From: Bdellovibrionota bacterium FG-2
GTDB taxonomy: Bacteria > Bdellovibrionota > UBA1018
Direction of reading: 5' to 3'
NCBI GenBank assembly: GCA_051382305.1
Contig: JBBCAV010000053.1
Span: 1-34,479, forward strand
Length of the DNA stretch: 34,479 nt
The notes under the pieces were generated by a model. That model saw only the letters and a program-made list of their open reading frames with translations, had not been told where the DNA came from and ran no database searches. Positions 2,492 through 22,804 of the stretch are shown here, piece by piece. Position numbers and translations under genes: made by a program. The first letter of the stretch is position 1. The number at the start of each line of letters is the position of its first letter.

Positions 2492-2519
2492 TTGTGATTC
2501 AGAGTGAATTGAGTAGAAT
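2492..2519 (+). promoter_or_regulatory. Putative sigma70 promoter of the tpl operon
   Basis: TTGTGA(2492-2497)-16 nt-TAGAAT(2514-2519), upstream of an AAGGGG RBS and the ATG at 2552. Confidence 0.35.
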
Positions 2520-2536: not shown

Positions 2537-3952
<1,416 letters not shown>

Positions 3953-3976: not shown

Positions 3977-5725
3977 ATGGACATAGCAGGAAGTCGGATT
4001 CTCATTCTCGGCGGCCCTGGATTAGTGGGGATGGCCGTCGTACGCAGGTTCTTATTTCACAAGCCTGAGTCGTTGGTCATCACAGCGTTGACGAAAGCCG
4101 AAGTCGATAGCGCGCTCAAAGAACTCGAGCCGGTTGCAGGAAAAACCAAGATTACTGGAAAATGGGGCAATGTTTTTGTGCGCTCCGAGTTTAAAGATTT
4201 ATCGCGCGCCGAGATTCTGGGAAACCCCGCACGACTCAGTCGTTTCGTCTTGGATACGCTGGAGCCGCTAAACGACGAGATTTTGAATGCTTCGACGCTT
4301 TATGACTTTGTGAAAGAGTATAAGCCTCATACGATTATTGATTGTATCAACACGGCTACGGCGCTTGCCTATCAAGACGTGTTTGAAACCTCACGGCAGA
4401 CCTATGCGATGCTCAAAGACTCGACCGTGAGTTCAAGCCCTGAGTTCAAGACAAGGGTTGAAACGTTGTTGGGCACGCAGTATACGCCGCAGTTGATTCG
4501 GCATATTCAGATTCTTTGGGAGTCGCTCACGGATGTTGGCGTGCAAACTTATCTTAAAGTGGGAACCACAGGAACCGGCGGAATGGGGCTCAATATTCCC
4601 TATACGCATTCTGAGGATAAACCCTCACGCGTATTGTTGGCAAAATCCGCAATCGCGGGCGCGCAGACGATGCTGCTTTTCTTATTAGGCCGTACCGCGC
4701 GTGAGCATGGTTCAACCTCGCAATGGTCCCCAGATCGCAACATCAAGGCGGGTTCTCCGATTATTAAAGAGGTCAAACCTGCGGCCGCCATTGGTTGGAA
4801 AGAAATCAGCTTTGGCAGAATCAGACGCAAAGGCAAGCCCGTCGAGCTTTTCGATCAAGATCCGAGCTGCGCTTTAGGGGTTGAGGAGATTTTGGCTCCT
4901 CGCACTCAAACATGGAAACGCGTGGAGAATGATTATCTGCAAGCCCCTTTCATCGATACGGGCGAAAACGGTATTTTCTCGCGGGGCGAATTTGAAGCCA
5001 TTACGGATGAAGGGCAGATGGAATTTATTACGCCTGAAGAAATCGCAGAAACCGTGGAAGCCGAAATCATGGGCGGCAATAGCGGCTCTGATTGCGTGAG
5101 TGCGTTGGACTCTGTGGTTTTAGGCCCGACTTATCGGGCCGGTTTCCTAAGAGCGCGCGCGGTGGAGAAGTTGCGCCAATTGGAAGACACCAATGGCGTG
5201 CCCAGTGTGGCTTTTGAAAACTTGGGCCCTCCAAGGCTTTCGAAATTGTTGTTTGAGCTGCATCTTATTACTCAGGAAATGGGCTTGCTGGAGGCCCCTA
5301 AATTTGACGCCGCTGAACTTGGCAAACGCTGTGAGGAGCGAATCTTAAAGAACGCAAAATTGCGAGCGGCGATTCTCTCTGTCGGTATTGCCATTGTATT
5401 GAGAAACGGGCGCGTGTTGCGGGGACCAGAGCTTGTGATTCCGAGTCGGTGGGATATTCCGAAGGATGGCGTTGTTGGAGCAAAGCATCTAGACCAGTAT
5501 GCAGCTCAGGGCTGGCTTGATTTGCGAGAAGCGAATATGAAGTCTTGGCTTACTCGTTTGGCTGCACTTCGAGATGAAGCGATGCGAGCGGATAACGAAA
5601 ATACCGGCTCGGCTTATGTGCGAAACCGCACCCATTGGGAAACCGTGGCCAAACAGGGGTCGCTAGGGAGCGTCGTGAGTTGGGTCTTCTTGCGTGAAGA
5701 AGACGGGGAGCGAGTCAAACGCTAA
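3977..5725 (+). CDS. Uncharacterised NAD(P)-binding Rossmann-fold protein (SDR-like), 582 aa
   Basis: N-terminal ILILGGPGLVG dinucleotide-binding motif, IIDCIN strand and Gly-rich GTTGTGGMGLNIPYTHSE block. AAGGAG RBS. Its stop overlaps the iorA start (TAATG). Confidence 0.75.
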   Translation: MDIAGSRILILGGPGLVGMAVVRRFLFHKPESLVITALTKAEVDSALKELEPVAGKTKITGKWGNVFVRSEFKDLSRAEILGNPARLSRFVLDTLEPLNDEILNASTLYDFVKEYKPHTIIDCINTATALAYQDVFETSRQTYAMLKDSTVSSSPEFKTRVETLLGTQYTPQLIRHIQILWESLTDVGVQTYLKVGTTGTGGMGLNIPYTHSEDKPSRVLLAKSAIAGAQTMLLFLLGRTAREHGSTSQWSPDRNIKAGSPIIKEVKPAAAIGWKEISFGRIRRKGKPVELFDQDPSCALGVEEILAPRTQTWKRVENDYLQAPFIDTGENGIFSRGEFEAITDEGQMEFITPEEIAETVEAEIMGGNSGSDCVSALDSVVLGPTYRAGFLRARAVEKLRQLEDTNGVPSVAFENLGPPRLSKLLFELHLITQEMGLLEAPKFDAAELGKRCEERILKNAKLRAAILSVGIAIVLRNGRVLRGPELVIPSRWDIPKDGVVGAKHLDQYAAQGWLDLREANMKSWLTRLAALRDEAMRADNENTGSAYVRNRTHWETVAKQGSLGSVVSWVFLREEDGERVKR

Positions 5726-7404
5726 TGCCGGAAAATATGCAAGGCCGCCAGAGTCTGATTCTCCAGGGCAACGAAGCCATCGCGCTTGCTGCAGTTCATG
5801 CGGGTGTGAGTTCGGCCTACGCTTATCCAGGCACGCCCTCGACGGAGATCATGGAGTATCTGCTGAAGCTAAAGGCCAAGCAGTGGTTTCCTCATGCCGC
5901 GTGGTGCGCCAATGAGAAGACGGCCTACGAGCAAGGACTTGGGGTTTCTCTCGTGGGTAAACGAGCCCTGGTCGCAATGAAGCATGTGGGTCTTAATGTG
6001 GCGGCCGATCCGTTCATGAGTTCAACGCTCGTTTCGCTACAAGGGGGGCTGGTGCTTGTAGTCGCCGATGATCCGGGGATGCACAGCTCGCAAAACGAAC
6101 AAGATACCAGGATTTTCGCGGATTTTGCGCATATTCCGTGTCTTGAGCCCGCGACTCCTCAGCAAGCCTACGACATGACGTTTGAGGCTTTTGATTTGTC
6201 GGAGCGTTTCGGGGTGCCGATTCTTCTCAGATTGGTGACCAGACTTTCGCATTCAAGATCGGCCGTGAATGTGCGAGCAGGCGATCCGGGGCGCGAGATT
6301 CGTGAAAAAACGCCCAAAAAAGCGGCGAACGCCGCGAACTGGATTCTCATGCCCGCCAATGCAAAACGGCAATGGCATGCACTTTTGGAGAAGCAACGTG
6401 AGTTTCAAGAATTCTCAGAGCAGACCCCTTACAATACGCTTGAAAATACGGGTGAGGTTTCGGAGCTGGGCGTGATTACGACGGGGATTGCGCGCGAGTA
6501 TTTTCTAGAAGAAAAAGCAGAACTCGCCGCGCTTTCGGGGGCACCCGCGCATCTTCATGTTGGGGTTTATCCGTTTCCGGCTGAGAAGATTCGGAAGCTG
6601 GCGGCGCGCTCCAAGAGGATTGTGGTTTTAGAAGAAGGTTATCCCTTTGTGGAGCGGTATTTGCGAGGAATCCTTGAACCCGCTGGGGCGCAGTCTCTAA
6701 CGATTGAGGGAAAACTGTCAGGCCTTTTGCCTATCGAAGGAGAAATGACTCCCGAATTGGCGCGACAAGCTCTGGGATTGCCACCTCGCAAAGGTGCGAG
6801 TTTCGAATCTTTCGGCCTATCACTTAAGGGTCGGCCACCTCAGCTTTGCAAGGGTTGCCCTCATGGTGATATGTTCGCGGCCCTTAAGCCAGCACTTGCG
6901 GCGTTCCCGCAGAGTTTGGTGACCTCTGATATTGGTTGTTATACTTTGGGGGCCTTGGAGCCCTATTCGGCCATTGAAAGTTGCGTCTGTATGGGGGCAT
7001 CGATTGGAATGGCTAAGGGCGCTGCCGAAGCTGGGTTTTATCCGGTGGTGGCAGTGCTTGGAGATAGTACATTTTTACATTCCGGGATGACGGGGCTTTT
7101 GGACGCCGTGAGCGCGAACACGAATCTGACTCTTGTTATTTTGGATAACGAAGCGGTGGCCATGACAGGGGGGCAGAAGACGTTGATTCCCTCAAAGCGT
7201 TTAAAAGATGTCGTCTTAGGCTTAGGGGTTTCGCCTGATCATTTGAAGATCGTCGAGGCGCATCGGACAAAGATTAAGGACAATACCGAAATTTTGCGCA
7301 AAGAAATTGAGTATCCTGGAATCTCCGTCGTGATTGCGGTGCGGGAATGCGTGGAGACGGCGGTCAGGAGTAAAAAACAGGCAGTGCAAGGGAGCGCGTT
7401 GTGA
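5725..7404 (+). CDS. iorA: Indolepyruvate:ferredoxin oxidoreductase subunit alpha
   Basis: GNEAIA, YPGTPSTEI, NEK, MKHVGLNVAADP, DDPGMHSSQNEQD, LCKGCPH, DIGCY and the TPP motif GDSTFLHSG...LDN..AMTGGQ. Confidence 0.93.
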   Translation: MPENMQGRQSLILQGNEAIALAAVHAGVSSAYAYPGTPSTEIMEYLLKLKAKQWFPHAAWCANEKTAYEQGLGVSLVGKRALVAMKHVGLNVAADPFMSSTLVSLQGGLVLVVADDPGMHSSQNEQDTRIFADFAHIPCLEPATPQQAYDMTFEAFDLSERFGVPILLRLVTRLSHSRSAVNVRAGDPGREIREKTPKKAANAANWILMPANAKRQWHALLEKQREFQEFSEQTPYNTLENTGEVSELGVITTGIAREYFLEEKAELAALSGAPAHLHVGVYPFPAEKIRKLAARSKRIVVLEEGYPFVERYLRGILEPAGAQSLTIEGKLSGLLPIEGEMTPELARQALGLPPRKGASFESFGLSLKGRPPQLCKGCPHGDMFAALKPALAAFPQSLVTSDIGCYTLGALEPYSAIESCVCMGASIGMAKGAAEAGFYPVVAVLGDSTFLHSGMTGLLDAVSANTNLTLVILDNEAVAMTGGQKTLIPSKRLKDVVLGLGVSPDHLKIVEAHRTKIKDNTEILRKEIEYPGISVVIAVRECVETAVRSKKQAVQGSAL

Positions 7405-7967
7405 GGTTTGATCTTGTGCTGGCAAATGTGGGCGGACAAGGCGGGCTTTCGATTGCCGCCGTGGTCGCGGTTGCGGCCCGGATGCAGGGGTTGTTCGTAA
7501 AACAGTCTGAAGTGCATGGCATGTCTCAGCGCGGAGGCGCGGTGAGTGCGCATCTTCGTCTCTCAGACCAAGAGGTGGCAAGTCCCTCGATTCCGCTGGG
7601 GGCAGCTTCGATGATCGTGAGTTTAGAACCCATGGAGAGTGTTAGATACTTGCAATATTTGTCGTCTCAGGGGCGCGTGGTGAGTGCGATTGCGCCGGTG
7701 GTGAATATTCCGGATTATCCACGTATCGAAGAATTGCTTTCAAAGTTAAAACAGTTACCGGGAGCCGTCTTGGTGGATGCCGATCAGTTGGCACGAGTTG
7801 CGGGCTCGGCTCGGACCGCAAATATGGTGATGTTGGGCGCGGCCTCAAACTTTTTGCCGCTTAATTCGGAGTCTCTTGAAGCGGCGATCCGGGAAATTTT
7901 CTCCTCAAAAGGAGAGGCCGTTGTTGTACAAAACCTCAAAGCCTTTGCGCTGGGGCGTGGAGTGTAG
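7401..7967 (+). CDS. iorB: Indolepyruvate:ferredoxin oxidoreductase subunit beta
   Basis: VGGQG, SEVHGMSQRGGAV and NMVMLGA motifs. The GTG start overlaps the iorA stop (GTGA). Confidence 0.92.
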   Translation: MRFDLVLANVGGQGGLSIAAVVAVAARMQGLFVKQSEVHGMSQRGGAVSAHLRLSDQEVASPSIPLGAASMIVSLEPMESVRYLQYLSSQGRVVSAIAPVVNIPDYPRIEELLSKLKQLPGAVLVDADQLARVAGSARTANMVMLGAASNFLPLNSESLEAAIREIFSSKGEAVVVQNLKAFALGRGV

Positions 7968-7970
7968 GGT

Positions 7971-10172
7971 TTGGATCGCCAAAAAATTCAAAGCATTTTT
8001 CAAAACGCGCGTGAGCAGGGACGAGAGAGTTTACTCGAAGCTGAAGGGCTTGCTCTTCTTGAAACCCTTGGGATAAAAGTGCCGCATACTTTGTCGCTCG
8101 GTGTTTTAGCTAACGAAAGCCTTAAAGGCTTTGGCGAAAAGATTGTTCTTAAGGCCATTTGCCCGGGGCTGATGCACAAGACTGAAGCGGGCGCCGTGAA
8201 GATAGTTGCCAATTCTGCAGACGTTTTGAATGCGCAGATGCTCGAGATGCAAAATCGGCTCAAGACCTTGGGGGGTATCGCGCCCTGTGAAGGTTTTCTC
8301 ATCGAAGAGTTCGTTCCTCATGACGCAGCAATGGGAAGCGAGTGGATGTTTGGCGTGAGTTTTAGTCCCGAATTTGGACCCGTAGTGACGCTGTCTCCAG
8401 GGGGGGTGCAAGCCGAATATCTGGCCAAAGTCTTGGATCCCGAAAGACGGTTACAAGCGTTCACGCCGAGTGGAGATGGCGCAAAGCTAGGTGCAAGCGG
8501 TTTAGCGGGTTTGGATCTTGTGACCAAACGTTTTCGCGGAAAAGACGCGTTGGTTTCGCTTAGCGAGTTTGTGCGGGTCACCCAGATTCTTCAGGAATTT
8601 GCGCAGAATTTCGTTCCTCATGATGTTTTAGAACTCGAAATCAATCCACTCGTCGTGTCCCAAGGCGCACTTGTGGCGGTCGATGTCGTGTGTCGATTGA
8701 GTGCGGGTTTGAATCCAGAGGTGGGACAGGCCGTGGCAGAGCTCCCTCAGAAACCGTTAGAGAAAATTCAAGCCTTGCTCCAGCCTTCTTCAATTGCCAT
8801 TGTCGGTGTTTCGGAGCGCATGAATCCGGGACGGGTGATTCTGCAGAATATTCTGCGAGCGGGTTTTCCTCGGGATAAAGTGCTGCTCATTAAAGAGGGG
8901 ATCCCTTCACTTGATGGATGTGCTTGCGTTTCGATGCTCAAGCAAAAAGTGGATCTTCTTATCTTGGCGGTTTCGGCAGCTCAAATTCCGGCGATCATTG
9001 AAAGCATTATTAAAGAGGATTGGGCTCACGCGATCATGGTGATTCCGGGTGGGTTTGAAGAAAAGCAAGGGGGCGAGCAGGGGAGTCAGCGCATTTGGCG
9101 CGCGCTTGGAGAGGTGCGCAAAACTCCGTCAAAAGGGCCCCTTATTAACGGAGGCAATTGCCTAGGAATTCGCTCGCTGCCGGGGCGCTACAACAGCATG
9201 TTTATTCCTGAAGAGAAACTGCCCACGTCCCAGGCATTAGAGAGTCCTGTTGCGTTGATCTCTCAGAGCGGGGCTTTTGTAATTTCTCGGATGAATCATC
9301 TCGCTCATCTTAATCCCAGGTACTCCATCTCAATTGGAAACCAAATGGATTTGACGGCCGGGGATTATCTTGAAGCGCTTGAGAATGATCCCGCGGTTCA
9401 GGTTTTTGGAGTTTATGTCGAAGGGTTTCGCCCGTCAGATGGCCTCAAATTTGTGACGATCGCTAGACGGCTCGTTGCGCAGGGGCGGAGCGTGATTCTG
9501 TATCGATCGGGGCGTACCTCGGCCGGTGCGCTTGCGTGTGCCTCTCACACGGCGTCCGTTGCAGGGGATTACCCCTTGATGGCCGCACTTTGTCGTGAGG
9601 CGGGAGTTCTTTTGGCCGAGAGTTTTGAGGATTTTGAAGATTTGGTGAGGGTCAAAACCCTTTTGAAGGGTCGGAAGACTCAGGGTGTGCGTTTGGGTGC
9701 AATCTCCAATGCTGGATTTGAGTGTGTGGCGTTTGCCGATCATTTTAAGAAGAATTCAGAAATGATCAGTCTCGCAATCTTTTCTGAGCAAACAAATCAA
9801 ACGCTTGAAGGGGTTCTTGTGAAGGCGGGAGTGTCAAACATTGTCGACATTCATAACCCCTTGGATATCACTCCGATGTGCGGAGATGAAGCGTTTGTAG
9901 CGGCGGCGCGCGCGGTGATTTTGGATGAAGGTGTTGATGCGGTCGTGGTGGGGTGTGTGCCGCTGACCCCCGCTCTTTCGACGAACGGAGATTCGGGATT
10001 TACCCGCGAATTGATTAAGCTTTGGAATTCGACTACAAAACCTTGGGTTTTGGTTGTTGAGGGCGGCGCAACTTATGAGGGTTTTGTGAGTGCATTGGCG
10101 GAGGCGGGGATTCCCGTTTTTCGTAATGCGGATCGTGCGGCGAGGATTTTGAGACTGCTACTGGGAAATTGA
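7971..10172 (+). CDS. ADP-forming acyl-CoA synthetase (acetate--CoA ligase family), beta-alpha fusion
   Basis: N-terminal ATP-grasp (VLK, HKTEAGAV, FGPVV, ELEINPL), then the CoA-binding domain (PSSIAIVGVS, GGNCLG), SQSGA, SIGNQMD, phospho-His ASHTAS and HNPLD. Confidence 0.88.
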   Translation: MDRQKIQSIFQNAREQGRESLLEAEGLALLETLGIKVPHTLSLGVLANESLKGFGEKIVLKAICPGLMHKTEAGAVKIVANSADVLNAQMLEMQNRLKTLGGIAPCEGFLIEEFVPHDAAMGSEWMFGVSFSPEFGPVVTLSPGGVQAEYLAKVLDPERRLQAFTPSGDGAKLGASGLAGLDLVTKRFRGKDALVSLSEFVRVTQILQEFAQNFVPHDVLELEINPLVVSQGALVAVDVVCRLSAGLNPEVGQAVAELPQKPLEKIQALLQPSSIAIVGVSERMNPGRVILQNILRAGFPRDKVLLIKEGIPSLDGCACVSMLKQKVDLLILAVSAAQIPAIIESIIKEDWAHAIMVIPGGFEEKQGGEQGSQRIWRALGEVRKTPSKGPLINGGNCLGIRSLPGRYNSMFIPEEKLPTSQALESPVALISQSGAFVISRMNHLAHLNPRYSISIGNQMDLTAGDYLEALENDPAVQVFGVYVEGFRPSDGLKFVTIARRLVAQGRSVILYRSGRTSAGALACASHTASVAGDYPLMAALCREAGVLLAESFEDFEDLVRVKTLLKGRKTQGVRLGAISNAGFECVAFADHFKKNSEMISLAIFSEQTNQTLEGVLVKAGVSNIVDIHNPLDITPMCGDEAFVAAARAVILDEGVDAVVVGCVPLTPALSTNGDSGFTRELIKLWNSTTKPWVLVVEGGATYEGFVSALAEAGIPVFRNADRAARILRLLLGN

Positions 10173-10191: not shown

Positions 10192-11571
10192 ATGGAACGC
10201 AAACGCTGTATTTTTGAGCCTTTTAAAATCAAGGTCGTGGAACCCCTCGCAATCAAAACTCGCGAGCAGCGAGAAGTGATTCTAAAAAAGGCGGGCTGTA
10301 ACTTATTCTTGGTCGCTGCTGAAGATGTCACGTTTGATTTTCTCACGGACTCGGGCACGACCGCGATGAGTGCCAATCAGTGGGGCGCAATGATGGTGGC
10401 GGATGAGAGTTACGCGGGCTCTCGCAGTTTTCATCGCTTTGAAAAAGTAGTGCGCGGATTAACGGGGTACACAAGCGTGCTCCCCACCCATCAAGGACGA
10501 GCCGCTGAAAGGCTTTTGTTTTCTTACCTTGTGAAACCCGGGATGAAGATTCCTTCTAACAATCATTTTGATACGACGAGGGCGAATATCGAGCAATTGG
10601 GAGGTCAAGCCGTAGATCTTGTGATTGCCGAAGGTAAGGATCCGACATCTCGTCATCCTTTCAAGGGCAACATTGATCTCGTGAGGCTTGAATCTTTTTG
10701 TCGCGAGAATGTGGGCAAAATTCCTTGTGGAATGATCACGATTACCAATAACACGGGCGGGGGTCAGCCTGTTTCTCTAGAGAATATGAGGGCCGTGGCC
10801 GCGATCTATCATCGTTACGGAATTCCTTTTATTATGGATGTTTGCCGTTTTGCGGAAAACAGTTACTTTATTAAGGAACGAGAAGAAGCGCTTTCGGGGC
10901 GAAGCGTGCGAGAAATTGCGCAAGAAACTTTTTCGTTGGCTGATGGCTGCATGATGAGCGCGAAGAAAGACGGGCTCGTGAACATCGGGGGCTTTATTGC
11001 GTTGAAAGACTCCCAATGGGTGGACGGCCTTCGTAGTTTGCTCATATTGACTGAAGGGTTTCCCACTTACGGCGGGCTTGCGGCACGAGACCTTGAGGCT
11101 TTGGCCGTGGGGTTAGAAGAAGTTTTGGATGAGTCTTATCTGAGTTATCGAATTGCCGTGATCCGCTATGTGGCGGAAGGACTCAATCGGATAGGGATTC
11201 CGACGGTGCAGCCGCCGGGCGGGCATGCGGTGTATATTGATGCCAAGGCTTTCTTGCCTCATATTGCGCCCGAAAAGTTTCCGGGGCAGGCGTTGGTGTG
11301 TGAAATTTATCTGGCCGAAGGCATTCGAAGTTGTGAAATTGGCTCCGTGATGTTTGGGAAAAAGTCGGGTGAAAACATATTTATTCCTTCGGCCATGGAG
11401 TTGGTACGTTTGGCGATTCCGAGAAGGGTATACACTCAAAGCCATTTTGATTATATTTTGGAAGGAATGGAGGAGCTTGTCGGGCGCAAAGACAAACTTC
11501 GAGGGGTTCGCATGACGTATGAGCCGCCATTCCTCAGGCATTTTACCGCGCGCTTTGAAATGCTGCACTAG
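10192..11571 (+). CDS. tnaA: Tryptophanase (tryptophan indole-lyase)
   Basis: Same fold as tpl but with Trpase-type residues: HFDTTRAN, MSAKKD, EIGS and LRHF. GGAG RBS. Confidence 0.92.
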   Translation: MERKRCIFEPFKIKVVEPLAIKTREQREVILKKAGCNLFLVAAEDVTFDFLTDSGTTAMSANQWGAMMVADESYAGSRSFHRFEKVVRGLTGYTSVLPTHQGRAAERLLFSYLVKPGMKIPSNNHFDTTRANIEQLGGQAVDLVIAEGKDPTSRHPFKGNIDLVRLESFCRENVGKIPCGMITITNNTGGGQPVSLENMRAVAAIYHRYGIPFIMDVCRFAENSYFIKEREEALSGRSVREIAQETFSLADGCMMSAKKDGLVNIGGFIALKDSQWVDGLRSLLILTEGFPTYGGLAARDLEALAVGLEEVLDESYLSYRIAVIRYVAEGLNRIGIPTVQPPGGHAVYIDAKAFLPHIAPEKFPGQALVCEIYLAEGIRSCEIGSVMFGKKSGENIFIPSAMELVRLAIPRRVYTQSHFDYILEGMEELVGRKDKLRGVRMTYEPPFLRHFTARFEMLH

Positions 11572-11586
11572 AATATCTGAGGTTCA

Positions 11587-11940
11587 ATGGACGATCGGCG
11601 TAAAGACCATCGCAAGAAGATTACTTTTCCCGTTTTGGTTTTGGGGGATGGGGTTTCTTCGCCCTTTCGCGTAGAAGTTTTGGATCTGAGTGCTGGGGGG
11701 ATGGGGCTTCTCTTTAAGAAGTCGGTAGAAAAGGACTCCGTGTTGTAACTCGAGTTTCAGCTCCCCAGTCATGCTGGGCCTTTTCGTGTGGCGGCGATTG
11801 TGAGGGGGGTTCGAATGACTTCGGCTGGCGTTGAAGACAACACTCCTCGATTTGCTGTAGGAGTTGAGTTTTTGAAACTCACCGCCGTGCAAAGAGAAGC
11901 TTTAGAGGCAGAGGTAGTAGGGTCTCTTTTCATGATTTGA
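11587..11940 (+). pseudogene. PilZ domain protein with in-frame nonsense codon (TAA at 11746-11748)
   Basis: Hand translation: MDDRRKDHRKKITFPVLVLGDGVSSPFRVEVLDLSAGGMGLLFKKSVEKDSVL*LEFQLPSHAGPFRVAAIVRGVRMTSAGVEDNTPRFAVGVEFLKLTAVQREALEAEVVGSLFMI. The RxxxR and DxSxxG motifs are present. Absent from the ORF track. Confidence 0.85.
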
Positions 11941-20307: not shown

Positions 20308-21000
20308 TTAGAGAACCTCCATTCGAATTCCTGCTAATATTCCTACACCCTCTAATCCAGACAATCCGCCCACGCGCTGTGGAATGGGAACGACAGCGCC
20401 CCCTCCGAGAGTCAAAAAGGATTGAGAAACGCCAACCGCTTGAAGGTTCAAGGGGAGGTTTCCCTGGATTCCGGTCTTAATCATGGCGGAAATTCCAAAA
20501 TCAGAAGCGGCGGATCCCAAAGCTGAGCTTGCGGCGCTGATCATCGTGGGCTGCAGGCTGGCCGAGGCAAAGCTGCTGAGTCTTTTGTAGCTCAATCTTC
20601 TGGGCTTGATCTCTAACCCTACCCCGAGAGAAGTTATGCTGACGTTTTGGCTCACAATCGAGGCGTTTAGCGCCGCCTGGCGTTCCAGGAGAGAATAGGA
20701 AACCTCTGCGATCCATCGGAGTTCTTCGGACGAGGTTTTTGAAAGAAGGGGCAGAAGGCTGATTGAAAGTGGTGGCATCGTTGCCGATTGAAAGCTTGTG
20801 GTGCCCGCGATTTGCGTCGGCCATACTAATTGGGCGGGGGTAAAGTTTGTTGTCGAAATTTGAACTGCCAAAGTGGCAGCAGTCTGCTCTCGGCGTGGCT
20901 TCGAAGCAGACGATAAGTTCAGTTCACTCTTAGGAATAACAAGTTCAGAGGCTGCGAGGCTAGTTTGTGAGATTAGGACTAACAAAATGAGCATTTTCAT
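20308..21000 (-). CDS. Exported hypothetical protein, possible small outer-membrane beta-barrel
   Basis: Signal peptide MKMLILLVLISQTSLA; alternating strands (LGVGLEI, FASASL, ILAGIRMEV); ATGA overlap with the upstream gene. Confidence 0.65.
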   Translation of the reverse strand: MKMLILLVLISQTSLAASELVIPKSELNLSSASKPRREQTAATLAVQISTTNFTPAQLVWPTQIAGTTSFQSATMPPLSISLLPLLSKTSSEELRWIAEVSYSLLERQAALNASIVSQNVSITSLGVGLEIKPRRLSYKRLSSFASASLQPTMISAASSALGSAASDFGISAMIKTGIQGNLPLNLQAVGVSQSFLTLGGGAVVPIPQRVGGLSGLEGVGILAGIRMEVL

Positions 21001-22745
21001 GAAGGGGCTCCTTGGAGGATGGGGACGAGGTGATCTAGGGAAATTCCGGTCGCGACGCCATACTGTTTGATGGCGTCAATATAGTTAAATTGAGCCTGGT
21101 CGAGTGCCGACTGCGCTTGGAGATAGGATTGCTCGACGGAGAGCAGCTGCAAAAAATCAGTCATCGCAAGTTTGTAGTTTCGTTTGGCTTCGTCCAGTGT
21201 TTTTTTAGCCAGTTCAAATGAAGTCTTCGCTGTTCCTATTTGTTCCCAGGCAAGATCCAGACTTTTTCGTGCGCGGATTTGCGAAAGCGAGAGCGTGGTC
21301 TCTAAATCAGCGCGTTGGGCTGCGATTTGGGCAGTTTGGGAATCGAAGTTTCGCCTTTCATAAACGGAGCTCAAGCCACTAAAAAGGGGAATTGAGAGTT
21401 GAACGCCCAGGGTCCAGGTAGTTGCGGTTCCATCAAAAAGTTCGCTCTTTGTATAGGCAGATCGACCCCAGTCGGCGGTTGCGAGAAGTTGTGGCAGATG
21501 CTTGCCCATGGCGACATTACGTTGCTCATCAACTTTGAGCGCCGAAACGGTGAGTTTTTCAAGCTCTGGGAGGCGAGTGGAAGTCGATTCTAACTGTTTT
21601 AGAAGCGCGGGGAGGGCGGGGATCGAAAAGTGAGAGGTCACATCCAAGGTCTCGGCACGCGTCTCGTTGATGAGGGAGGCGAGTTCCGAAACTGCGATTT
21701 GTAGCTGGGTGCGCGCACTATCAATGTTGCCGGAGAGCAGGGATAATTGCGTCTTAGCTTGGAGAACATCAAGGAGTTGTCCCCGTCCAATTTGATAGCG
21801 CTTTTCAGCCGTAGCTAGGGTCTCTTTTTGAATCACGTTACTTTGATTTAACGTATCGAGCTTTCGCTTTTGAAGAATGAGATTGAAAAAGGCGGTAATG
21901 ACCGAGGACTTAATCGCGCGCTCCGTAAGCGTGACGTCCAAGGAGGCCAAGTCTCGATCGTCGCGTGCCTGACTAATCGCTGCAAACATTCCTGAATAGT
22001 ACAGGGGCTGTGCCGCGTGAAGTCCTATAGCATACTGATTATAAGCTTCGCCGTCAAAGCGAGGTGTCCCTACATTTGAGGCATCTTTTTTATAAAGCGA
22101 GGACCCTTGCGCCGCAAGGGTCGGTAGGAGCTGTGAATACGGTGCGCCGGCTAGAACCTCGGTCTGAGCCAGTTTTTCCTGTGCTAATTTTAGGGAGGGC
22201 AAAGAGCCCAGGGCTCTTGTTATGGCTTGCGTAAGGGTAAGCGGCGCTTCGGCCGGCGCGCCCGAAGGCGCGGCCCAGGCGGTAGGCCCCGAAAAACTCA
22301 GTGTAAAATAAATGAGAGCAAGTACGGGGAAAATTTCTCGCAAGGCTCTGAGGCCCTTTTCGAGGGCCTGTTTTTGAGAAGGTGCAATCTGTGAAAAATG
22401 AAAATTAAGATTTTGGCAGGCATTTTCTCGAATCATGGTAATTTTAGAAAGGCCGTTCTTGGTGAGTGTGAGATGGTTTTTGCGACGGTCTTTTTTGTCT
22501 TGGATTTGAGTCACGAGATCTTGTTTTTTTAAGCCTTCTAAGAGGCGAGAGAGCGTAGGCGTGCTGACTCCGATGTTTTCGGCGAGCTCCGTTTGCGTGA
22601 GAGTCTTTTCAGCAAGGTTAGCGAGGAGGCGAAACTGGAGTAGCGTGAGATTTGCGCGCGGAACTTCGCGCATTTTCGAGCGAATAACTGACATTGCCCG
22701 CGGAATGGCATCCAAAAACTCTTCGGCAATATTTGAATCTTGCAT
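20997..22745 (-). CDS. In-frame fusion: MarR-family regulator + signal-like segment + TolC family outer-membrane efflux protein
   Basis: N-terminal MarR (LTLLQFRLL, LTQTELAENIGVSTPTLSRLL, DKKDRR..LTLT..G), then IFPVLALIYFTLSFSGPTAWA-AP, then two OEP repeats (LLPTL, QPLY, KRYQIGRGQLLDVLQA, LPQL, GVQLSIPLFSG). No stop between domains. ATG 22745 chosen as start. Confidence 0.85.
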   Translation of the reverse strand: MQDSNIAEEFLDAIPRAMSVIRSKMREVPRANLTLLQFRLLANLAEKTLTQTELAENIGVSTPTLSRLLEGLKKQDLVTQIQDKKDRRKNHLTLTKNGLSKITMIRENACQNLNFHFSQIAPSQKQALEKGLRALREIFPVLALIYFTLSFSGPTAWAAPSGAPAEAPLTLTQAITRALGSLPSLKLAQEKLAQTEVLAGAPYSQLLPTLAAQGSSLYKKDASNVGTPRFDGEAYNQYAIGLHAAQPLYYSGMFAAISQARDDRDLASLDVTLTERAIKSSVITAFFNLILQKRKLDTLNQSNVIQKETLATAEKRYQIGRGQLLDVLQAKTQLSLLSGNIDSARTQLQIAVSELASLINETRAETLDVTSHFSIPALPALLKQLESTSTRLPELEKLTVSALKVDEQRNVAMGKHLPQLLATADWGRSAYTKSELFDGTATTWTLGVQLSIPLFSGLSSVYERRNFDSQTAQIAAQRADLETTLSLSQIRARKSLDLAWEQIGTAKTSFELAKKTLDEAKRNYKLAMTDFLQLLSVEQSYLQAQSALDQAQFNYIDAIKQYGVATGISLDHLVPILQGAPS

Positions 22746-22777
22746 TGGGTTGTGTATGCAGCATTTTGTTGTGTTTG

Positions 22778-22804
22778 GCAATGATTAACATTGGTAATCA
22801 TTGC
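22778..22804. promoter_or_regulatory. Perfect 10-bp inverted repeat, candidate operator between divergent tolC-like genes
   Basis: GCAATGATTA-ACATTGG-TAATCATTGC. It abuts TTGACG (22805-22810, + strand) and overlaps TTGCCA (22776-22781, - strand). Confidence 0.65.

Follow-up and report, generated by a model that had tools for sequence, protein, structure and literature searches.

A 582-aa Ind2-family (PF27054) protein encoded beside iorAB and an ADP-forming acyl-CoA synthetase in Bdellovibrionota bacterium FG-2: a candidate 2-oxo acid/2-hydroxy acid oxidoreductase

The question raised by this locus is which reaction an unusually long Rossmann-type protein contributes to an operon that also encodes an indolepyruvate ferredoxin oxidoreductase (IOR) and an ADP-forming acyl-CoA synthetase (ACS). 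The window, that is, the whole stretch of DNA analysed, comprises 34,479 nt of Bdellovibrionota bacterium FG-2 (contig JBBCAV010000053.1 of assembly GCA_051382305.1), and the protein in question, of 582 aa, is encoded by an ATG open reading frame (ORF) at 3977..5725 on the + strand. AGAAGGAG constitutes a Shine–Dalgarno sequence 8–15 nt 5' of this ATG, and its TAA stop and the iorA ATG have one base in common (TAATG). A preliminary description of the DNA, made from the letters alone, had pointed out the ORF, its GGxGxxG start, four distinctive blocks and translational coupling to iorA, all of which we confirmed in the sequence; it had gone on to propose either a new type of amino acid dehydrogenase or a 2-oxoacid/aryllactate oxidoreductase. 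Our preferred reading, which we hold to be reasonably probable, is that the 582-aa protein would function as an NAD(P)H-dependent 2-oxo acid/2-hydroxy acid oxidoreductase (probably arylpyruvate/aryllactate) that shares its substrate pool with IorAB. The substrate class is inferred from the comparisons below, and the "aryl" specificity and the link to IOR are suggested by genomic context. The gene and the two motifs on which the argument leans are as follows.

3977..5725, + strand: 582-aa Ind2-family (PF27054) atypical oxidoreductase with a short-chain dehydrogenase/reductase (SDR) fold (from the ORF, the family search, the Ind2 comparison and the structural model)
4010..4030, + strand: Rossmann dinucleotide motif GGPGLVG (GGxGxxG), residues 12–18; G13, G15 and G18 are each kept in at least 90% of 78 aligned relatives
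4556..4609, + strand: signature KVGTTGTGGMGLNIPYTH, residues 194–211; K194, T197, G199, G201, G202, M203, G204, N206, T210 and H211 are invariant or at least 90% conserved

The 582-aa protein had been described as an orphan, a view refuted by the at least 7,999 relatives (E ≤ 0.001) recovered among 8,000 scored candidates in a word-indexed protein search, and by an exhaustive HMMER search in which, among the representatives of 50%-identity clusters, 779 matched at E ≤ 0.001 and 213 at E ≤ 1e-30. The family PF27054.1 is precomputed for the protein itself and for 120 of 120 relatives among the matches listed, whose source names are "short-chain dehydrogenase" or "hypothetical protein". In the ESM Atlas, PF27054 carries the label Beta_methylindole_red_C and is present on 95–98% of the members of the three nearest clusters. 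Our local scan returned no Pfam match for the protein because the Pfam copy used for it has no PF27054 model, and NCBIfam gave a weak Rossmann match only.

The family label led to a characterised homologue. By tracing Ind2 via actinobacterial family members, P0294 was found in the cluster of P0281; it is a 570-aa Streptomyces griseus protein with the Swiss-Prot RecName Beta-methylindole-3-pyruvate reductase (Ind2). BLASTP aligned the window protein with P0294 at 30% identity over 561 columns (residues 1–535 against 1–534, E 5e-67), so that the statement that no function had been demonstrated for such a protein was wrong. Ind2 is described as a ketone reductase that uses NADH to turn 3-methylindolepyruvate into indolmycenic acid, a 2-hydroxy acid (PMC8246080; PMC5925218), and Escherichia coli expressing ind genes is described in the same sources as also yielding C-desmethyl-indolmycenic acid; the identification of the latter with indolelactate is our own reading from its mass. 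The membership of the 582-aa protein in this family, and the reaction type that it would catalyse, are both taken from direct comparison with Ind2. It is not an Ind2 orthologue proper: it belongs to a different clade, and the window operon contains neither a methyltransferase gene nor an indolmycin-type cluster.

Residue conservation is consistent with a shared chemistry. The blocks singled out in the preliminary description, namely KVGTTGTGGMGLNIPYTHSE (residues 194–213), DTGENG (327–332), GQMEFITPEEIA (346–357) and LGPPRLSKLL (416–425), are the most conserved columns of the 78-sequence family alignment, in which G201, G204, G417 and E427 are invariant and another 49 positions reach at least 90% conservation, including G13, G15, G18, D122, N125, K194, H211, K223, E330, N331, R392, K423 and W513-x-D-L-R517. 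At these 53 positions the window protein carries the conserved residue throughout (53/53) and Ind2 is identical at 48; the differences are T128S, Y192F, E330D, M348F and G577A, the first four of them conservative. Ind2 retains all conserved residues of the KVGTTGTGGMGLNIPYTH signature, and this stretch is a probable active-site loop.

The predicted fold agrees with this family placement. An alignment-based AlphaFold model of the 582-aa protein reached a predicted local distance difference test score (pLDDT) of 88.9 and a predicted template modelling score (pTM) of 0.87 (a single-sequence model, with a pLDDT of 32, was discarded). The top Foldseek matches are SDR-superfamily proteins, both classical and extended (sugar-nucleotide epimerases and dehydratases), with E about 3e-6, and the best matches in an exhaustive VIA-align search are all SDRs (Z 16–18.4), in which some 230 residues align, distributed over model residues 1–385. 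When the PDB was searched by sequence, neither the protein nor the family profile gave matches beyond the Rossmann region, and no solved whole-length relative was found; the family profile matched the N-terminus of 3pvz at E 2.5e-7 and one L-lactate dehydrogenase (LDH) chain at E 0.2 over the N-terminal 54 residues only. Neither Pfam nor NCBIfam matched the protein to the D-2-hydroxyacid dehydrogenase or LDH/malate dehydrogenase families. As modelled, the protein thus appears to consist of an SDR-type Rossmann core with large insertions, followed by a family-specific C-terminal helical domain. Structure prediction with Foldseek, which the preliminary description had put forward as a check, bore out the Rossmann/SDR core; none of the 50 structural matches listed in the VIA-align search covers the helical C-terminal part as a domain.

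The second line of evidence is the operon itself, in which six co-directional genes are separated by gaps of 24, -1, -4, 3 and 19 nt. The 582-aa gene is the second of the six, and the remaining features are these.

2492..2519, + strand: sigma-70-like promoter match, 33 nt 5' of the first operon gene (consensus 9/12; weak, as such sites are no more numerous in the region than in shuffled sequence)
2552..3952, + strand: tyrosine phenol-lyase, a pyridoxal 5'-phosphate (PLP)-dependent beta-eliminating lyase and first gene of the operon (TIGR02618, 780.4 bits against a cut-off of 720.7; PF01212, 9.8e-81; 24-nt gap to the next gene)
5725..7404, + strand: iorA, short form (TIGR03336 profile positions 4–542 of 595, 497.5 bits, below the cut-off of 650.9; POR_N and TPP_enzyme_C domains only)
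7401..7967, + strand: iorB (NF005324, 255.7 bits against a cut-off of 222; PF01558; 4-nt overlap with iorA)
7971..10172, + strand: fused ACS with ATP-grasp, CoA-binding and ligase domains (PF13549, PF13380, PF13607; TIGR02717 and NF045494 below their cut-offs)
10192..11571, + strand: second beta-eliminating lyase, tryptophanase family (NF009709, 644.9 bits against a cut-off of 285; the TnaA and tyrosine phenol-lyase equivalog models below their cut-offs)
11628..11653, + strand: terminator-like hairpin, 57 nt after the last operon gene (9-pair stem and T-rich tail; consensus match only)

The two PLP-dependent lyases that flank the other genes had gone unmentioned in the preliminary description. 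Its remark that the operon lacks an aminotransferase holds, as Pfam and NCBIfam scans found no class I/II aminotransferase in it. By composition the operon is not a foreign islet (GC 0.50–0.53, compared with 0.47–0.54 in the rest of the window). Two further ORFs of the window were recorded as observations in their own right. A 459-aa coiled-coil protein with weak SMC-like matches only is encoded at 1079–2458, just upstream of the operon, and has a counterpart in the same position at locus L006 (72% identity). On the - strand at 20997–22781, a 594-aa ORF joins an N-terminal MarR-type helix-turn-helix to outer-membrane efflux protein (OEP) repeats, and is either an odd fusion or the product of an over-extended TTG start.

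The window IorA contains no Fer4 domain detectable with Pfam, and positions 543–595 of the IOR_alpha profile (TIGR03336), which are absent from it, match ferredoxin-type ORFs elsewhere in the genome. IorA is equally short and Fer4-less at L003:9759-11357, L008:6047-7663, L009:6246-7838 and L099:1912-3560 (530–549 aa; 530–559 aa with the window included). The idea that the 582-aa protein might substitute for the missing ferredoxin domain was rejected: its four cysteines are not conserved (C123, the most frequent, is present in 42 of 78 sequences), which argues against a role in Fe-S electron transfer, and it contains no flavin or Fe-S motif.

The association with iorAB and ACS recurs among homologues. 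Scoring as IorA-like any tblastn match to the window IorA at E ≤ 1e-8, a definition under which other types of 2-oxoacid:ferredoxin oxidoreductase (OFOR) would be missed, we found such a gene in the fetched flanks of six of 11 genome loci, and five of these six also have ACS. The gene order of the window is kept in L002, L003 and L006; in L008, L009 and L010, which come from other phyla and encode homologues 43–44% identical to the window protein, iorAB is transcribed divergently. At L099, in another Bdellovibrionota family, the homologue is only 35% identical and the order X-iorA-iorB-ACS (X being the 582-aa gene or its homologue) appears again. In a first family tree of 93 rows (L001, L013–L016 and L019 were omitted as repeats of genomes already present), the eight IOR-linked rows fall into three well-supported groups; in a second tree, built under a mixture model, two of these three groups join at 93% in the Shimodaira–Hasegawa-like approximate likelihood ratio test (SH-aLRT), below the threshold of 95. 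As a separate observation, two loci of different phyla (L010:6778-7899 and L011:6756-7982) encode an RDD-family membrane protein immediately 5' of the homologue and in the same orientation, and the two genes are possibly a conserved pair.

From these elements a scheme can be drawn in which a cytoplasmic Ind2-family enzyme would, by analogy with Ind2, move hydride between nicotinamide and C2 of a 2-oxo acid, interconverting the 2-oxo acid and the matching 2-hydroxy acid; arylpyruvate and aryllactate are the likeliest pair, with pyruvate or other 2-oxo acids as possible substrates. The IorAB without a ferredoxin domain would oxidise the oxo acid to acyl-CoA, from which ACS would generate ATP. 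The 582-aa protein could then be either a supplier that makes hydroxy acids available to IOR, or an outlet through which surplus oxo acid and NAD(P)H end up in hydroxy acid. Operation from hydroxy acid to oxo acid is favoured by a respiring host and by the "feeder" nature of the other accessory genes found beside related iorAB genes (see below): the genome, which is 85% complete and whose closest records are Oligoflexia/Bdellovibrionales metagenome-assembled genomes (MAGs), has two haem-copper oxidase matches, which suggests that the host probably respires, and no [FeFe]-hydrogenase match was found in it. Operation in the reductive direction is favoured by the known direction of Ind2 and by analogy with fermenters.

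A number of observations weigh against this reading. As to chemistry, the SDR motif YxxxK was not found at the conserved K223, where the residue at -4 is Val219; conserved instead are Y209, T210, H211 and Y192-x-K194, with K223 itself kept in at least 90% of sequences. Ind2 is a distant paralogue, placed among actinobacterial sequences and separated from the window clade by the deepest split of the family tree, so that the reaction type can be transferred from it but the substrate cannot; NADH-dependent reduction of a 2-oxo acid is known for Ind2 alone, and for the window clade it would be assigned by homology. Tyrosine phenol-lyase and tryptophanase deaminate Tyr and Trp to pyruvate, and the flanking lyases would thus make pyruvate rather than arylpyruvates, which makes the "aryl" guess a weak one. 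As to context, the 582-aa protein is closer (43–49% identity) to a large clade without IOR linkage; in this largest clade (67 rows), an IorA-like gene is seen in none of the 33 rows flanked by 3 kb or more on each side, and the contexts sampled are varied (scpB-rluB in L027, CorA, penicillin amidase). Among metagenome loci only one of 80 has an IorA-like neighbour (L019, with the same layout as L003). The examination of homologue neighbourhoods that the preliminary description had suggested therefore supports the iorAB-ACS linkage in three tree groups, but not in the largest clade.

The gene is also absent from most close relatives of the iorAB-ACS triad. In a phylum sample of 401 genomes, the 582-aa protein was found in seven and an IorA-like match at E ≤ 1e-30 in 88; where IorA is at least 57% identical to that of the window (11 genomes), only four encode the 582-aa protein (G000, G263, G173 and G254). 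For the other seven, neither the genome search nor about 6 kb on each side of iorA, where the contig allowed, contained the gene, and tblastn found no homologue in 11 iorA regions (L103–L109, together with L110–L113, in which IorA is 40–43% identical). In all 11 of these regions iorB follows iorA, and ACS follows in six of the seven regions L103–L109, L107 ending at a contig edge. The 582-aa gene is thus an accessory gene, dispensable for the triad, and this too counts against the reading.

The rival explanation that survives best, although we consider it unlikely, is that the substrate of the 582-aa protein is a general or housekeeping one with no relation to IorAB, as it would be for its relatives in the majority clade, and that its position in the operon is accidental. 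This would accord with the seven of 11 closest iorAB triads that lack the gene, with the scpB-rluB context in L027, and with the first tree as a whole, in which 38 rows with 3 kb or more of sequence on each side lack an IorA-like gene, as against eight that have one. An accidental position is harder to reconcile with linkage in three well-supported tree groups and in two arrangements, with a four-gene order that is the same at 35% identity, and with the one-base overlap with iorA in the window; moreover, the chemistry described for the family, that of Ind2, concerns the same substrate class as IOR.

A second rival, which we regard as improbable, is the amino acid dehydrogenase of the preliminary description: a new SDR-fold NAD(P)-dependent L-amino-acid (aromatic) dehydrogenase converting Phe, Tyr and Trp to arylpyruvates for IorAB. 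The gene heads the X-iorA-iorB-ACS module and is coupled translationally to iorA, and the accessory slots of related triads do hold deaminating enzymes: a class I/II aminotransferase directly after ACS at L106:10679-11812, in a triad without the 582-aa gene, and a tryptophanase-like lyase directly before iorA at L107:2237-3661, 73% identical to the second lyase of the window. Given these two genes, enzymes producing 2-oxo acids tend to be found in the variable positions around the triad, and the 582-aa protein occupies such a position, which counts for the preferred reading as well. (A general non-orthologous replacement of the 582-aa gene in triads that lack it was considered and rejected, as the upstream genes, except at L106 and L107, are unrelated: HD domain, DUF3108, radical SAM and tRNA methyltransferase.) Weak matches of the family profile to the NAD domain of leucine dehydrogenase (E 1.4e-4) and to that of tryptophan dehydrogenase (E 0.24) were also obtained, but these are restricted to Rossmann positions 5–151, and no Pfam match to the Glu/Leu/Phe dehydrogenase (ELFV) families was found at E ≤ 0.01. 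The sole characterised homologue, with which 48 of the 53 conserved residues are common, is described as making a hydroxy acid and not an amine. Nor is a deamination step obviously missing: with two deaminating lyases in the operon and nine class I/II aminotransferase matches elsewhere in the genome, the premise from which this proposal started is weak. Of the two interpretations offered in the preliminary description, the 2-oxoacid/aryllactate oxidoreductase is thus favoured by the full-length homology to Ind2, whereas direct support for the amino acid dehydrogenase is lacking.

A third proposal, that an SDR-type acyl-CoA or aldehyde reductase follows IorAB and converts arylacetyl-CoA to arylacetaldehyde or the alcohol in competition with the ATP-forming synthetase, could draw on the SDR-fold core (with cinnamoyl-CoA reductase among the structural matches, Z 15.8), on a gene position adjoining acyl-CoA-forming and acyl-CoA-consuming enzymes, and on P0147, a 924-aa relative with a 3-hydroxyacyl-CoA dehydrogenase C-terminal domain (residues 243–308) ahead of its PF27054 region, but is likewise improbable given that Ind2, with which the 582-aa protein has invariant residues in common, is described as acting on a free 2-oxo acid, that we identified no CoA-binding feature in the 582-aa protein, and that P0147 is a single cluster representative whose architecture may reflect either a genuine fusion or an error of gene calling. 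Rosetta-stone fusions in general were set aside as a functional clue, since just two were encountered, one with the 3-hydroxyacyl-CoA dehydrogenase C-domain and the other with a rotamase, a number too small to build on, and both may be artefacts.

Returning to the preferred reading, of a 2-oxo acid/2-hydroxy acid oxidoreductase, the 582-aa protein adds a member to a family that is catalogued but has hardly been studied, and does not represent an enzyme of a new kind. The bacterial family PF27054 is very large (at least 7,999 relatives), and its single studied member comes from secondary metabolism. The literature search found no paper containing "PF27054", and none naming "indolepyruvate ferredoxin oxidoreductase", "short-chain dehydrogenase" and "ADP-forming" together. 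The recurrent placement of some members beside IorAB and ACS suggests a role in primary metabolism for part of the family, namely the interconversion of 2-oxo and 2-hydroxy acids where oxo-acid fermentation begins, and bears on the handling of aromatic amino acids or aryllactate in uncultured Oligoflexia and in the unrelated phyla that share the module. In a bolder version, to which we assign little likelihood, the Ind2-family protein would catalyse the first step of a mobile and self-contained pathway of four genes, in which IorAB without the ferredoxin domain and then ACS follow it, either as an SDR-fold L-amino-acid dehydrogenase or, more mildly, as an aryllactate/2-hydroxy-acid dehydrogenase. 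The former would provide a transaminase-independent route from amino acid to ATP, the latter would allow the module to harvest ATP from hydroxy acids, and either would be the first physiological role for the PF27054 family.

Among known systems, Ind2 is the closest. The two proteins are of similar length (570 and 582 aa), colinear over residues 1–535 and both assigned to PF27054, and they have in common the TTGxGGMGxNxPYTH loop, H211, K223, R392, K423 and WxDLR; the Ind2 substrate is, in addition, a derivative of indolepyruvate, the compound class that IOR oxidises. The setting differs, as Ind2 is described as part of an antibiotic gene cluster (PMC8246080), whereas the window gene lies in a catabolic operon of lyases, IorAB and an ATP-forming synthetase. 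With SDRs such as MalC (6nkh), L-sorbose reductase (3ai1) and UDP-GlcNAc 4,6-dehydratases, the window protein shares the Rossmann core and the N-terminal glycine motif, but it is about twice as long, with large insertions in the core and an extra helical C-terminal domain, and has neither YxxxK at the conserved lysine nor an SDR Pfam match.

The aryllactate or phenyllactate dehydrogenases of amino-acid fermenters, such as FldH of Clostridium sporogenes (D-2-hydroxyacid dehydrogenase family), reduce arylpyruvate to aryllactate with NADH, on a proposed branch beside the oxidative, ATP-yielding 2-oxoacid:ferredoxin oxidoreductase route. They catalyse the reaction suggested here for the window protein, and their proposed role is similar too, but this is a likeness of function only: the fold family is unrelated. 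The peptide fermentation module of Pyrococcus and Thermococcus combines IorAB with an ADP-forming acyl-CoA synthetase, and in the window iorA, iorB and a fused ACS are likewise adjacent and co-directional. The window module departs from this archaeal type in that its IorA, like that of four related loci, has no ferredoxin-like domain, and in that it adds an Ind2-family reductase and, in the lineage of the window, also two beta-eliminating lyases.

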